IMG/VR virus record: IMGVR_UViG_3300042922_000233 | Coordinates: 1 to 39,538 of that record | Length of the DNA stretch: 39,538 bases | Direction: 5' to 3' (one strand) | Source of the DNA: a virus | Part shown: piece after piece, positions 4,825-39,538 of the stretch | Numbering within the stretch: position 1 is the first letter of the stretch | Layout: each line of letters opens with the position of its first letter | Translations under genes and position numbers: made by a program | The notes under the pieces: generated by a model | The model's input: only the letters and a program-made list of their open reading frames with translations | Database searches by the model: none | What the model was told of the DNA's origin: nothing

Positions 4825-5241
4825 TTAAATCCTCATTAATCGTTCCGCAATCTTTCTGGCACAATCCCAACAAATATCTAAATAATCATCCGGGACTAAG
4901 TCTGTTGATCCGCAATGCTTACACCTTGGCTTGCACACAAAGCATTTGACTTCTCTAATTATTTGTGATATTTTACATTTAAAGTTTATTATGCATTGGC
5001 CTGTCGGGAGTTGGCGCTCCTGCAGGTCGTTTTTATTGCTGTAATACTTGTTAATTAGGTACGCATCTAGGCAAAATACCAATATGCCGAAGCTTGTACG
5101 AATTAGAAACTGCCGCACTGTAATTACATCACACTCTAATGCTCCGAACTGGCCTATTATGTACCATAAAGAAACAAGGAATAGTACCGAGGCTATAAAG
5201 CCTAATATTTTACTTTTCAAGCTTGTCCTCCTCTCGCTCAA
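4825..5241 (-). CDS. Membrane protein with C-terminal zinc-ribbon (CxxC...CxxC)
   Basis: 138 aa with two hydrophobic helices (ILGFIASVLFLVSLWYIIGQF; SFGILVFCLDAYLI), then CKHCGS...CWDC. Confidence 0.5.
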   Translation of the reverse strand: MSERRTSLKSKILGFIASVLFLVSLWYIIGQFGALECDVITVRQFLIRTSFGILVFCLDAYLINKYYSNKNDLQERQLPTGQCIINFKCKISQIIREVKCFVCKPRCKHCGSTDLVPDDYLDICWDCARKIAERLMRI

Positions 5242-5356
5242 TATCAGCTAGGGTTAGCGAGGTAAAGACGGCAACTATAGTTATCTTTTCATCCGGTATA
5301 AGTCCCTCCTTCGCCAGTGCCCGGGCTATCTTTTCTGCTTTCTGTCGATTTGTCAT
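5210..5356 (-). CDS. Small hypothetical protein (48 aa); not in the ORF track
   Basis: GGAGGTATCC precedes the ATG at 5356. MTNRQKAEKIARALAKEGLIPDEKITIVAVFTSLTLADIEREEDKLEK. It overlaps the next ORF start by 32 nt. Confidence 0.45.
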   Translation of the reverse strand: MTNRQKAEKIARALAKEGLIPDEKITIVAVFTSLTLADIEREEDKLEK

Positions 5357-5366
5357 GGATACCTCC

Positions 5367-6197
5367 TTATATTCTTATCCCGGTGATATCATAAAACTTC
5401 TCGGGATCAAAGTTAGGAATATTCTGAATCGTGCATTTATCATTCTGAGATAATCCAGCCCACCACTCAACACAGCAAGTACTTGTGTCATTATCCTTTA
5501 GGTACCCTCTTGTGGTTTCATACTCAGGATGATCCTTCTTTTCTTGCGCGGACATGTCACTCTCGCAAATCCAATCAGTAGGTCTGAAATCAATATTACG
5601 GAGCAGTCTATAAGCTCTTGTGTTTCTCCACTCATTCAAAGTCATTTCGCTCGGTTTATCAAAGATATGTATTTCGTGGTCAATGCTGTTAAAACAGCCG
5701 GAGTTCCCATTGCCGGAGTTCCAATCGCCGGAGTTCCTATTGCCGGAGTTCCCATTGCCGGAGTTCCTATTGCCGGAGTTCCCATTGCCGGAGTTCCTAT
5801 TGCCGGAGTTCCCATTGCCGGAGTTCCTATTGCCGGAGTTCCCATTGCCGGAGTTCCAATCGCCGGAGTTCCAATCGCCGGAGTTTGACAAACCGCTGTT
5901 ACCTTTACCACTGTTCACGGTTGTTAGCAATTCACTCCATGGGATTTCACGGATGATATGTATCTTATTCGTGCTACACTTGTCACCTTCTTCTGCGATT
6001 TCTCCAAGAGCCTCAATCTCAGCAACCTTATTATTTAGATCAAATTCGTAGTAACCGAAGCAATCAGCTGCAATCTGGCAGAAATGGAATCCTCTGTTGC
6101 ATAAGCTTGGCGATGCTTCCATTTCGTAGGTTTGTCCTACTTCATACTGAAAATTTCTACATGTCCAATTTGGATTAAATACCTTGAAACCTTTCAT
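5367..6197 (-). CDS. Pentapeptide-period (NSGxx) repeat protein with Cys/His-containing N-terminal domain
   Basis: 276 aa. The centre is NSGDW/NSGNG/NSGNR repeated about 16 times. The N-terminal roughly 90 aa (KVFNPNWTCRNFQYEVGQTY...LCNRGFHFC) and the C-terminal roughly 100 aa are non-repetitive. Confidence 0.75.
   Translation of the reverse strand: MKGFKVFNPNWTCRNFQYEVGQTYEMEASPSLCNRGFHFCQIAADCFGYYEFDLNNKVAEIEALGEIAEEGDKCSTNKIHIIREIPWSELLTTVNSGKGNSGLSNSGDWNSGDWNSGNGNSGNRNSGNGNSGNRNSGNGNSGNRNSGNGNSGNRNSGDWNSGNGNSGCFNSIDHEIHIFDKPSEMTLNEWRNTRAYRLLRNIDFRPTDWICESDMSAQEKKDHPEYETTRGYLKDNDTSTCCVEWWAGLSQNDKCTIQNIPNFDPEKFYDITGIRI
5697..5876. repeat. Coding tandem repeat: 12 units of 15 bp (gccggagttccNatY), including 4 perfect copies of a 30-bp unit at 5727-5846
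   Basis: Counted directly from the sequence. It encodes the NSGxx repeats on the minus strand. Confidence 0.95.
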
Positions 6198-35514: not shown

Positions 35515-35721
35515 TCAGCTAGTAGTCTTATTTCTCCAGTTCTTAAATTCACCTGTCTTTATTCTATTATCTGTGTGAGGCTCATCGGGAGATATAAACC
35601 AGTCTCTTCCTTTTTTCTCTGCTGTCTTGTACGATCCCCTCTGTGCCCTTTGTCTTGCCGTAACAGGTGCTATGCCGTGCTTTTCTGCATATTCTTTTAA
35701 AGGTATTTTATCCATTACCAT
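35515..35721 (-). CDS. HTH DNA-binding protein (excisionase/MerR-like fold candidate)
   Basis: MVMDKIPLKEYAEKHGIAPVTARQRAQRGSYKTAEKKGRDWFISPDE. The start overlaps the stop of the upstream 57-aa ORF. Confidence 0.5.
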   Translation of the reverse strand: MVMDKIPLKEYAEKHGIAPVTARQRAQRGSYKTAEKKGRDWFISPDEPHTDNRIKTGEFKNWRNKTTS

Positions 35722-35888
35722 TCCATCTCCAGCGCTTCGTAATCCCAATCATCCCAACCATGTTCGGATGCAAATGTATCCATGTCAACATCTGCTATAT
35801 CAAGGGCATCATCAATGCTCATGCTGTGATTTGTAACTACTTCTGCTACTAAAGTTTTACTCCCATTATCATTATACCAGAGTTTCAT
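35715..35888 (-). CDS. Small acidic protein (57 aa); not in the ORF track
   Basis: GGTGAGGA lies 4 nt before the ATG at 35888. MKLWYNDNGSKTLVAEVVTNHSMSIDDALDIADVDMDTFASEHGWDDWDYEALEMEW. It is the first gene after a consensus promoter. Confidence 0.55.
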   Translation of the reverse strand: MKLWYNDNGSKTLVAEVVTNHSMSIDDALDIADVDMDTFASEHGWDDWDYEALEMEW

Positions 35889-35941: not shown

Positions 35942-35970
35942 ATTATACATCTTTCAAGATGTATTGTCAA
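35942..35970 (-). promoter_or_regulatory. Consensus sigma-70-type promoter TTGACA-17-TATAAT with a 16-nt palindrome (ACATCTT-GA-AAGATGT) spanning the spacer and first base of the -10
   Basis: The reverse complement of 35965-35970 is TTGACA and that of 35942-35947 is TATAAT. Confidence 0.7.
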
Positions 35971-36054
35971 TACTTATTTTGAGGATTTACAAAAATATTT
36001 TTACTAGCCAATATTCGGTTGTCAAGGTTCATTTTATTTAACTAAAATATCAGT

Positions 36055-37242
36055 TTAGTGAATTAACCACTCTTCATTTCTTACCTGGTATGCATCGCCC
36101 AAATGAATCATATCCGGATAATTGTGCTTTGCCGTCTGAATTGCGTATCTATCAATTTCGGTAGCATAATACCGGATTACATTGGCACCAAGTACATCTA
36201 ACGCTATATGTCCACAACTCATTCCGTCATACATGGATAGTACTTCGATTTCATCGGTTAGTATTCCGGGAATAAATGATAGTTGGTGCGCTATTACATC
36301 CACTGTCCAACCATTACCTAGCATCTTATAGGCTTGTGAATCAGATACAGGGAAGATATACCACTCTGGTACTGTTTGTAGTCTCATGCATTCAAGCACG
36401 GTAAGCTTACGAATTATGTAATAACCATCTTGGAGTTTTATAGGATACTGTTTATCCTTTATGGTTATGTGTCCTTCTTTTACTTCATAAATCGGTTTAT
36501 TAACTGTACCTAGATATTGATAAAAGTCAGGTGAGGTTGTAAGGCAATTGGATTTATCTTTCATATTTCTTCCGCGTCTTGTCTTACTGGTTGCCATTGC
36601 TAGATCTACGCAATCCATAGGTTCTATTTCTGTAAATCCTATTTTGGTTGCTTCTGGCACCTTCATGCATGGCACTGCCACTAAACTTCTGCGGTGTTTT
36701 TCCAGAGTTCCTTCCGGAAGAGACCCTTTCCAGTAGTTAGCATCCAGACAATGCGCCTTCCCTTCCGGATTAGTCCCAAATGGATATACAGGTTCAGCAG
36801 CCATATGCCGCGAATACGAGTGTTGACTTGTTGGGTCATAAGTGCCGGCAGTTCTATAGTAGTTTGCATCCAGTGTATAACTCTTTTCTCTCCACGCCAT
36901 TCCTGTTTCCAGAATATCTATTAACAATATCCCTTTATCCTCTGGCTGTGTTATTCCTGGTATATTTGACCAATAAAGTCTATTCCTGTTTTGTGCTGCT
37001 ACTAAAGAAGAATTAATAAGTATCGGTTCTACGCCTAACTCTTTTGTAATCTGCTCCCTTATTGCCGGAGCCATCGATTTGTTATTCTCATAAAGGAAAT
37101 AATCTGGCTTATATTTTCTTAGGCCTATAACATAATTTTCAAATAATTCCCATCCTAACCCGGACGGCTCTGTTTCTCTGTTCTTGGTCTGTGCGATAGA
37201 CCAGCGTGTGCATGGGCTTCCGCCGATATATAATTTAATCAT
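36055..37242 (-). CDS. DNA (cytosine-5) methyltransferase with circularly permuted motif order
   Basis: GGSPC (IV), ENN (VI), QNRNRLYW (VIII), RKLTVLECMRLQTVPEWY (IX) and GNGWTVDV (X), followed by VLSMYDGMSCG (I), YYATEID (II) and LGDA (III) at the C-terminus. Confidence 0.8.
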   Translation of the reverse strand: MIKLYIGGSPCTRWSIAQTKNRETEPSGLGWELFENYVIGLRKYKPDYFLYENNKSMAPAIREQITKELGVEPILINSSLVAAQNRNRLYWSNIPGITQPEDKGILLIDILETGMAWREKSYTLDANYYRTAGTYDPTSQHSYSRHMAAEPVYPFGTNPEGKAHCLDANYWKGSLPEGTLEKHRRSLVAVPCMKVPEATKIGFTEIEPMDCVDLAMATSKTRRGRNMKDKSNCLTTSPDFYQYLGTVNKPIYEVKEGHITIKDKQYPIKLQDGYYIIRKLTVLECMRLQTVPEWYIFPVSDSQAYKMLGNGWTVDVIAHQLSFIPGILTDEIEVLSMYDGMSCGHIALDVLGANVIRYYATEIDRYAIQTAKHNYPDMIHLGDAYQVRNEEWLIH

Positions 37243-37325
37243 TTTATTACAGGAGTAAACGCGCGTTTATTGTCCGGACAAACTCGTTACCCCTTTCTGT
37301 TTAATTAACAAAATCCTTAGTTTTG

Positions 37326-38761: not shown

Positions 38762-39538
38762 CTAATCATCCATACTTACTCCAATTTCAAATTCTTCTTT
38801 GATTGGTTTATTGATTAATCCTTTTTCAAGCTTTGCATAATCCTCAGCGGTATATGTTCGCTGTGGGAAATCATGCTGCTTATTAATAGGTTTCGGTTGC
38901 CGTTGTGGCTTATTCTCTTGCTTGAGGGGAAATAAACCTTTCCAACCGCTTACTATAGATTGATTAATGATAGCTATTTGGGTCGATATATCCGGGGATA
39001 ACTTAGGCAGCTGCTTAATCATTAAGTCAATCGCCTTATCCGTCATAGGTGATTTCATAGCTTTGCTTTTTCTGAATTCTATGAAATCTAAAATAGCTTG
39101 ATTTAATAACGGATCGTCAACGTAGCTTTTTATATTATCGTTAGATAATATATTGTTATCATTATTCTCATTATTGTTTGTGCTTTTTGGTGTTTCCTCA
39201 GTGTTTCCTTTGCGTTTCTTTGGTGTTTCTTTGGTGTTTCTCGAATTCTGGAAATCGCTATATTTTACAATGGTTATAGCCGTTTCCTTGGTGTTACTAT
39301 TTTTTTCTATCATGTGTTCCTTTTCGAGAACATTCAAAAAATCAAAAACTTTCTTCCGTGACCAGCCCCAACGATCAGCTAATTTCTTTATGCTTGTGAT
39401 GCGAGACCCCCTCTTTACAGTGGTGATCTGGTTGCCATGGAGAAACTCATTATCCTCATGATTGACTAATAGAATTAAATCAACCCATGCCTGTCCTTTG
39501 GTGAATGGCTTATCTTCCCATAACCAGTGATCTGTTAA
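38762..39538 (-). CDS. Replisome organizer / DnaD-like replication protein (body and C-terminus; open to the window edge, true start at 157 after wrap-around)
   Basis: The frame is open from 39538 (LTDHWLWEDKPFTKGQAWVDLILL...). A low-complexity N/K/T linker follows. The C-terminal LNQAILDFIEFRKS..KSPMTDKAIDLMIKQL...IINQSIVSGWKGLFP resembles the conserved phage replication C-terminus. Confidence 0.75.
   Translation of the reverse strand, partial: LTDHWLWEDKPFTKGQAWVDLILLVNHEDNEFLHGNQITTVKRGSRITSIKKLADRWGWSRKKVFDFLNVLEKEHMIEKNSNTKETAITIVKYSDFQNSRNTKETPKKRKGNTEETPKSTNNNENNDNNILSNDNIKSYVDDPLLNQAILDFIEFRKSKAMKSPMTDKAIDLMIKQLPKLSPDISTQIAIINQSIVSGWKGLFPLKQENKPQRQPKPINKQHDFPQRTYTAEDYAKLEKGLINKPIKEEFEIGVSMDD
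39412..39538. repeat. Terminal direct repeat copy 2 (identical to 1..127)
   Basis: Direct comparison. Confidence 0.95.

Follow-up and report, generated by a model that had tools for sequence, protein, structure and literature searches.

Methyltransferases that act on C5 of cytosine (C5-MTases) are the textbook case of a fixed order of sequence motifs, and departures from it are few. The DNMT3-related DRM enzymes of plants reportedly carry motifs VI-X ahead of I-V, with the cut between V and VI (an arrangement attributed to Cao and colleagues in 2000 and Zhong and colleagues in 2014). A natural permutation is also described for M.BssHII, M.Alw26I, M2.Eco31I, M.Esp3I and M2.BsaI ('Type H' in Albert et al. 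2018, 'topology F' in Samokhina and Alexeevski), where motif I comes directly after motif X, the break lies in the variable region and the resulting order, (TRD)-IX-X-I...VIII, where TRD is the target recognition domain, leaves both structural domains intact (PMC5944983). All 27 C5-MTases with X before I in the REBASE scan of Albert et al. 2018 are broken in the variable region, and that scan found no natural counterpart of the laboratory-made permutants of the II-IV region (PMC5944983). Such permutants of M.HaeIII, M.MpeI and M.SssI (types B/C of Albert et al. 2018) have been engineered with the new N-terminus in the II-IV region, and those of M.HaeIII with N-termini between motifs II and IV were active, according to the summary of Peisajovich et al. 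2006 in PMC5944983; engineered tandem fusions of M.MpeI, M.SssI and M.HaeIII are active as well (PMC5944983). A 2020 review by Woodcock et al. mentions one alternative bacterial C5 motif order (PMC7544214), and the December 2025 version of the classification by Samokhina and Alexeevski assigns m5C enzymes to just two topologies, C (canonical) and F (Eco31I type). In the full-text literature, a coverage that leaves REBASE and subscription journals outside, we found no description of a natural C5-MTase cut between motifs III and IV, such an order being found only for laboratory-engineered enzymes. Here we describe a phage gene that appears to encode just such an enzyme, located in a stretch of 39,538 nucleotides (IMG/VR record IMGVR_UViG_3300042922_000233, positions 1 to 39,538; the whole stretch is referred to below as the window).

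The open reading frame (ORF) occupies positions 36055..37242 of the minus strand and comprises an ATG start, 395 codons and a stop; the frame was confirmed at exactly the coordinates given by the initial annotation, which had named no strand. Since an in-frame TAA lies eight codons 5' of the ATG, with no other start codon between the two, the protein cannot begin earlier. Its motifs follow one another in the order IV-VI-VIII-TRD-IX-X-I-II-III instead of the canonical linear order from I to X. The motif strings quoted in the initial annotation are all present in this very order, and translation bears out that the protein starts at motif IV and ends 11 residues after LGDA of motif III. The parts of the gene are listed below, with the basis of each assignment in brackets (residues are those of the protein; SAM, S-adenosylmethionine; pLDDT, predicted local distance difference test).

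36055..37242, minus strand: whole ORF, putative circularly permuted C5 DNA methyltransferase (translation, PF00145, re-ordered alignment, conservation)
37198..37239, minus strand: motif IV, IKLYIGGSPCTRWS, residues 2-15, with strand beta-4 and the predicted catalytic Pro10-Cys11 at the N-terminus (motif strings, conservation, AlphaFold2 strand 2-8)
37075..37104, minus strand: motif VI, DYFLYENNKS, residues 47-56, with YENN at 51-54 and Glu52 as the equivalent of the ENV glutamate (DNMT3A alignment, conservation)
36964..37011, minus strand: motif VIII, residues 78-93, with AQNRNRLYW at 83-91 (DNMT3A alignment, conservation)
36790..36903, minus strand: variable-region module A, residues 114-151, core YTLDANYY (module presence/absence analysis; low pLDDT)
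36670..36789, minus strand: variable-region module B, residues 152-191, core HCLDANYWKG (module presence/absence analysis)
36508..36669, minus strand: variable-region module C, residues 192-245, SKTRRGR...NCLTTSPDF (module presence/absence analysis)
36358..36414, minus strand: motif IX, IRKLTVLECMRLQTVPEWY, residues 277-295 (PF00145, conservation, motif string)
36280..36330, minus strand: motif X, YKMLGNGWTVDVIAHQL, residues 305-321, with GNGW at 309-312 (PF00145, conservation; AlphaFold2 helices 301-308 and 314-321)
36244..36279, minus strand: new X-to-I linker, SFIPGILTDEIE, residues 322-333, 12 residues (constant spacing in homologues)
36088..36243, minus strand: motifs I-II-III, the SAM-binding half, residues 334-385, beta-1 to beta-3 moved to the C-terminus (profile, DNMT3A alignment, conservation, AlphaFold2)
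within 36088..36243, minus strand: motif I, residues 334-348, with VLSMYDGMSCG at 334-344; motif II, residues 355-364, with YYATEID at 358-364; motif III, residues 378-385, with LGDA at 381-384 (motif strings)
36058..36087, minus strand: C-terminal tail, QVRNEEWLIH, residues 386-395, the former III-to-IV linker (aligns with DNMT3A 'QEWGPF', which precedes beta-4)

The family profile PF00145 matched the native protein in two pieces that are out of order, residues 3-318 aligning with profile positions 63-316 only (86.9 bits; cutoff 22) and the last 80 residues, taken alone, with positions 2-56 (E = 0.097). The score of TIGR00675 on the native protein, 69 bits, lies under its cutoff of 100.65, as expected with the first 62 profile positions displaced. 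Over 56 residues, the C-terminal block shares 68% identity with residues 1-56 of the canonical gp10 of Roseobacter phage CRP-603 (E = 7e-22). When the protein was un-permuted in silico by placing residues 321-395 (75 residues) ahead of residues 2-320, the resulting sequence matched PF00145 over positions 2-316 with 101 bits and gave a single alignment with the catalytic domain of DNMT3A, which covers motifs I to VIII and passes the artificial joint without interruption (E about 1e-17). At the joint, the native '...NEEWLIH' followed by 'IKLYIGGSPC' falls on DNMT3A 'QEWG-PFDLVIGGSPC', which places the chain break directly before beta-4, with the III-IV loop fully kept as the C-terminal tail. The SAM-contacting residues of motifs I-III also match those of DNMT3A. 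The out-of-order matches to the profile and to DNMT3A are far beyond chance, and all the tests run support, at the level of sequence, a circularly permuted C5-MTase cut in the III/IV linker. The initial annotation had recognized motifs I-III in the C-terminal block, a clean cut in that linker and a new linker between X and I, and had proposed the two partial PF00145 matches and conservation of the order in a clade as checks; on all these points the results given here and in the next two paragraphs agree with it.

The same order recurs in a large set of homologues. A search of 5.8 billion proteins yielded at least 8000 candidates, the best 120 of which are 53-82% identical to the query by BLASTP, mostly cover 99-100% of it and come from many independent assemblies, including NCBI isolate genomes in which the gene is annotated as 'DNA cytosine methyltransferase' (Robinsoniella peoriensis, Lachnoclostridium). 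The ten homologues that were read have a common start, M..L.GGSPCT.WS, and a common end, ..LGDA.QVR... Motif patterns recovered the strict order IV<VI<VIII<X<I<II<III in 117 of the best 120 and inspection by eye in 2 more (119 of 120 altogether), the last one being an N-terminally truncated fragment; a second motif I or IV was detected by these patterns in none of them. The spacing from GNGW of motif X to DG of motif I is exactly 28 residues in 119 of the 120. Across this set every catalytic or cofactor-binding residue is either invariant or conserved to at least 90%: G7, G8, S9, P10, C11, T12, W14 and S15 of motif IV each reach at least 90%, E52 of motif VI is likewise conserved, and Q84, R86 and R88 of motif VIII, G309 and N310 of motif X, and D339, G340, G344, E362 and D383 of motifs I-III are invariant.

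A query restricted to the junction (residues 256-395, that is IX-X-linker-I-II-III) was run with HMMER against 1.84 billion representatives of 50%-identity clusters and retrieved 188 clusters at E up to 1e-30. Among the best 150 of these 188, ~115 have motif X directly followed by motif I, many of them as fragments from short contigs, 28 have the canonical order and 2 are tandem fusions. In species-representative genomes of GTDB the same query found 214 encoded relatives, with a contiguous junction in all 79 loci that were kept. These 79 belong mostly to Lachnospiraceae, Oscillospiraceae and relatives, cultured strains such as Robinsoniella peoriensis CCUG 48729, Oscillibacter sp. 1-3, Anaerotruncus colihominis JM4-15, Acutalibacter caecimuris M00118 and Flavonifractor sp. 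An92 included, and the closest among them, metagenome-assembled genomes of a Bacillota (91%) and of Herbinix (90%), suggest a Lachnospiraceae-like host for the phage. Judged from these sequences, the permuted order is common to hundreds of related phages and prophages of gut Clostridia. In a collection of phage genomes, phage nd4 (OR777945.1, locus L002, 3001-4677) encodes a permuted homologue of 558 aa (WRQ08028.1) that is 41% identical to the query and, as confirmed by translation, collinear with it over residues 1-392; it is annotated only as 'hypothetical protein'. MT836645.1 gave a one-piece tblastn match collinear with the query. The two-piece tblastn matches in this collection were rejected as permuted enzymes and have the canonical order. 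Also set aside was the two-ORF MTase ('short' and 'long') of Vibrio phage ICP1_2006_E (locus L001, 1504-2502), considered as a natural fission between III and IV: translation shows a frameshift inside motif IV (...GGFPCQA*), and because the first ORF ends there, the locus is to be read as a frameshifted gene or pseudogene and not as a split between domains, which makes it irrelevant here.

In an AlphaFold2 model built with the 120-sequence alignment, both the catalytic core and the C-terminal block are predicted with confidence, the latter with means of 72-97 for ten-residue blocks over residues 321-395. The N-terminal elements are a strand at 2-8 (beta-4), a helix at 29-44, a strand at 48-54 (beta-5), a helix at 59-69 and strands at 73-77 and 87-92 (beta-6 and beta-7). 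The helices of motifs IX and X follow the core and are succeeded by a strand at 331-337, a helix at 344-351, a strand at 354-361, a helix at 365-374 and a short strand and helix, which can be read as beta-1/alpha-A/beta-2/alpha-B/beta-3; this is the order of elements expected of a Rossmann-like MTase read from beta-4. The ordinary MTase fold would thereby be rebuilt in three dimensions, the N-terminal beta-4 slotting between the C-terminal beta-1 and beta-5, the old termini being joined by the 12-residue linker and the new termini lying at the former III-IV loop. Foldseek searches of the PDB returned DNMT3A/B/C, M.HhaI and tobacco DRM (ntDRM) with probability 1.0 and E about 1e-6, confirming the fold family; the permutation itself cannot be tested by Foldseek, which depends on chain order.

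The nearest relatives of the window protein outside the permuted set are canonical-order, DNMT3-like C5-MTases of phages and prophages with the motif GGSPCT.WS (for instance P0195, P0245 and the second half of P0148; P numbers denote individual homologues). They share all ten motifs, the catalytic and SAM-binding residues and the same kinds of variable-region modules, but run I-II-III-IV...X, whereas the window protein starts at beta-4 and has I-III after X. More distant relatives with the canonical order are CRP-603 gp10 and the catalytic domains of DNMT3A/B. The BssHII/Eco31I type resembles the window protein in the direct passage from X to I but differs in the place of the break, which in the window protein falls in the Rossmann-like catalytic domain, between III and IV, and not in the variable region; IX-X accordingly do not precede a I-VIII block. 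Plant DRM (ntDRM, 4onj), found among both the Foldseek and the sequence matches, likewise has rearranged motifs but keeps IV and V with I-III, whereas in the window protein IV and V are N-terminal with VI-VIII, motif IV standing at residues 2-15, ahead of VI. The initial annotation had noted that the known permuted enzymes are cut at other positions, which for M.BssHII agrees with PMC5944983 and for DRM with the order given above.

In block order the protein agrees with the class beta amino-MTases (M.PvuII, M.RsrI, CcrM, M.EcoGII; 'topology B'), in which IV is likewise followed by the TRD and then by X-I-II-III (PMC7544214). Those enzymes, however, have a (D/S)PP(Y/F) motif IV, methylate exocyclic amino groups and show no close homology to the window protein, which has GGSPC and the full C5 motif set and whose best profile and structure matches are C5 enzymes; the resemblance is clearly one of topology and not of membership. 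The laboratory permutants of M.HaeIII, M.MpeI and M.SssI have in common with the window protein an N-terminus in the II-IV region, the difference being that they were engineered while the window clade is natural. Their activity, as summarised in PMC5944983, and that of the engineered tandem fusions imply that a topology cut between III and IV is compatible with catalysis.

The origin of the arrangement can be approached through the canonical-order relatives, which carry an identical motif IV, GGSPCTYWSIAQ. The initial annotation had singled out PCT..W in place of PCQ..F as unusual: the difference from PCQ.FS is real, but because it is shared by these relatives it belongs to the wider subfamily and does not stem from the permutation. 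A neighbour-joining tree was built from the core blocks I-III, IV-VIII and IX-X of 52 permuted and 21 canonical sequences, put in a common order; it unites the permuted sequences in one clade (98 of 100 bootstraps), with the canonical PCT.WS group as sister. Two relatives, P0148 (962 aa, with PCT.WS in both halves and three PF00145 stretches by Pfam) and P0163 (618 aa), are natural head-to-tail fusions of two complete C5-MTases, [I-X][I-X]. Along its middle, P0148 is collinear with the window protein, whose residues 4-113 are 59% identical to residues 75-185 of P0148 and whose residues 274-392 align contiguously with residues 251-392, that is, with IX-X from the first copy and then I-III from the second. 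The permutation-by-duplication model (Jeltsch 1999 and Peisajovich et al. 2006, as cited in PMC5944983) requires just such an arrangement. A further protein, P0194 (556 aa), starts in a TRD-IX-X piece that is followed by a full I-X enzyme, and P0148, P0163 and P0194 are candidate intermediates of such a process. We infer an origin by a single permutation-by-duplication event, in which a tandem head-to-tail [I-X][I-X] fusion would have formed in the phage subfamily with motif IV 'GGSPCT.WS' and then have lost its first I-III block and its last IV-X block. No residual I-III block was found upstream of the ORF and no residual IV-X block downstream of it, and the window contains no other MTase fragment.

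Bacillus phages SPR, phi3T, rho11s and H2 reportedly encode multispecific enzymes, studied by the Trautner laboratory, with several target-recognising modules in tandem between motifs VIII and IX. These C5-MTases are orphan phage enzymes like the window protein, but of canonical order. In the permuted homologues the variable region is a mosaic: the 12 segment types that we defined and mapped on the set of 120 occur in at least 25 combinations, the window having A-B-C and others A-D-E-C, A-D-E-F-C, A-H-E-C, A-G-B or A-B-I. Most segments contain a core 'T/C-L-x-(A/T)' of the kind found in TRDs. The shuffling of its modules and the analogy with the Bacillus phage enzymes suggest that more than one target sequence may be methylated by the window enzyme. 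Site counts in the window were compared with a crude zero-order expectation, from which no specificity is drawn; CCGG (2.4x), GCWGC (2.5x), GCNGC (2.0x) and CTGCAG (2.5x) are over-represented, and ACGT (0.35x) and GGCC (0.54x) under-represented.

The window is the genome of a temperate siphophage. Its bases 1-127 are exactly repeated at 39412-39538, which indicates that a complete phage genome was assembled in circular or terminally redundant form, with a unit length of 39,411 bp (38% GC). Among its genes are those for an integrase, a replication initiator of the DnaD/O-like kind and the large terminase, together with a long series of minus-strand structural genes. The MTase gene lies between the replication module and a late-activator-like gene followed by the terminase. 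Its neighbours are small proteins with no match to a nuclease or cofactor-synthesis family of Pfam, and there is no restriction enzyme nearby, so that the enzyme has the position of an orphan phage methyltransferase, encoded by a phage without an adjacent cognate restriction endonuclease. As this is the usual setting of such enzymes, methylation of the phage DNA would be expected to allow escape from host restriction. Another phage has a homologue of 65% identity (P0029) at the same position, near a Dam-type MTase. In the locus concerned (L004) the Dam-type gene (5191-5706; PF02086, 171 aa) is found two genes upstream of that for the permuted C5-MTase, and the early region also contains an Hfq homologue and a ParA/ParB pair.

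Several homologues carry insertions, extensions or deletions. Inteins occur in the permuted P0222 (853 aa), P0257 (761 aa) and P0174 (752 aa), inserted in motif IV just before the catalytic Cys (GGSP|CFVAGT...VVHN|CT.WS), which becomes the +1 extein residue. In P0222, the Pfam families Hint_2 and LAGLIDADG_3 scored above and Intein_splicing slightly below the cutoffs; P0257 has the same insertion by sequence, and P0174, which is N-terminally truncated and begins within the insert, has the C-terminal junction only. Comparable non-MTase sequence follows directly after GGSPC in the canonical-order P0181, P0208, P0215, P0218, P0234, P0251, P0255 and P0264. The permuted P0129 (658 aa) has a C-terminal extension with a weak match, below cutoff, to the phage Mu Mom family (residues 513-626; PF25680, E = 1.8e-4) and may combine two DNA-modification activities in one fused chain. 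Motif III is followed by acidic low-complexity and helical tails in P0133, P0224, P0268 and the nd4 protein. P0268 (425 aa) has its entire variable region deleted, motif VIII joining the segment before IX, and P0133 (447 aa) is without motif VIII and the start of the variable region; these two may be inactive or altered in function.

C5-MTases share a standard chemistry, established for M.HhaI and DNMT3A. The window protein has the attributes of this superfamily, namely a PF00145 score above cutoff, Pro-Cys in motif IV, Glu in VI, QxRxR in VIII, motifs I-III and the GN of motif X, and by analogy its chemistry is expected to be ordinary: Cys11 would attack C6 of the flipped-out cytosine, Glu52 and Arg86/Arg88 would activate the ring, and SAM, held by D339/G340/G344, E362 and D383, would pass its methyl group to C5. 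An unlikely alternative is that the fold serves another reaction, a non-methyl group being transferred to C5 as by phage CmoX, or that the enzyme is an obligate domain-swapped dimer, with the catalytic half of one chain completed by the C-terminal SAM half of its partner. The divergence of PCT.WS from PCQ.FS and the existence of phage C5-MTase homologues with a different chemistry, such as the carboxymethyltransferase CmoX (PMC12783734), speak for another reaction, but PCT.WS is common to the canonical-order relatives, no CmoA-like or other cofactor-synthesis gene lies near the MTase gene or in the homologous phage locus, and the SAM-contacting residues are those of DNMT3A. A swapped dimer is suggested by the class beta amino-MTases, which have the same linear order and have been argued to need dimers (PMC7544214); in the window protein, however, the variable region still stands between VIII and IX, its canonical place, so that this geometric argument is not obviously applicable.

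Misassembly and pseudogene formation are both very unlikely. A collapsed or mis-joined tandem duplication of an ordinary I-X gene would merely look permuted, and tandem-fused MTases do exist among the relatives, the contig itself being a metagenomic assembly with a terminal overlap of 127 bp. The homologues from independent samples and isolate genomes nevertheless have identical starts (M..L.GGSPC) and ends (..LGDA.QVR..), the gene lies within the contig between intact neighbours, no other MTase fragments occur in the window, and conservation of the order in a large clade from independent assemblies excludes a collapsed duplication; we regard this explanation as effectively refuted and give it next to no weight. 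Little more can be said for a decaying remnant, an inactive leftover of a tandem-fused MTase that lost both ends and no longer folds or works. It would fit the lack of known experimental activity, the missing Shine-Dalgarno site upstream of the ORF and the homologues P0268 and P0133, which are without the variable region or motif VIII. Against it stand the invariance of the catalytic and cofactor-binding residues in over 100 divergent clusters with identities as low as about 50%, the fixed spacing of 28 residues between GNGW and DG, and the inteins at the catalytic Cys (in P0222 by Pfam, in P0257 by the same insertion sequence), a location that fits a gene kept under selection.

A genuine, selectively maintained permuted C5-MTase, with the fold, chemistry, role and duplication origin set out above, is as a whole very probably the best explanation, although some observations weigh against it. 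No methylation assay or characterised member of the permuted clade was found in the literature. The AlphaFold2 model is only moderate overall (mean pLDDT 63; predicted template modelling score, pTM, 0.60), its variable region (107-190) is unmodelled, and the packing of beta-1 against beta-4 as in the ordinary MTase fold is one that we infer from sequence and model. The Foldseek template modelling (TM) scores are low, 0.2-0.35, as expected from an order-dependent comparison of a permuted chain with an unmodelled variable region. The tree was built by neighbour-joining on short blocks. Module shuffling is the only basis for multispecificity, and the variable region has no match among PDB sequences at E up to 10. 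Finally, no recognisable Shine-Dalgarno sequence lies within 15 nt of the MTase ATG (37243-37325, minus strand, …tttactcctgtaataaaATG), whereas the genes neighbouring the MTase have strong GGAGG-like sites.

We lean, if only slightly, towards a broader proposal: that the clade is a third natural motif-order class of prokaryotic 5mC MTases ('beta-like', IV...X-I-III), the counterpart of a topology otherwise made only in the laboratory, which arose once by tandem duplication with fused intermediates still extant, spread as a mosaic and probably acts as a multispecific anti-restriction enzyme in phages of gut Clostridia. If this is true, nature, too, makes use of the III/IV break known from directed evolution, and the tandem fusions, canonical sisters and permuted clade form an unusually complete natural series for the permutation-by-duplication model. 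The novelty would lie in the chain topology, which as far as we found is not reported for natural members, the enzyme family appearing ordinary. The permutation also explains the partial matches obtained by motif- and profile-based annotation, such as the 'hypothetical protein' of nd4 and the TIGR00675 score under cutoff, and it flags a widespread, probably multispecific methyltransferase for studies of gut-phage epigenomics.

Some further observations concern expression. In the L004 phage, the permuted MTase gene overlaps the upstream ORF by 4 nt, suggesting translational coupling. Just downstream of the MTase stop codon in the window, a perfect 12/12 sigma-70 consensus promoter (TTGACA, 17-nt spacer, TATAAT) lies at 35942-35970 on the minus strand, and a second site, scoring 10/12, at 35997-36025 on the same strand; both precede a small gene (35715..35888) that has a strong Shine-Dalgarno sequence.

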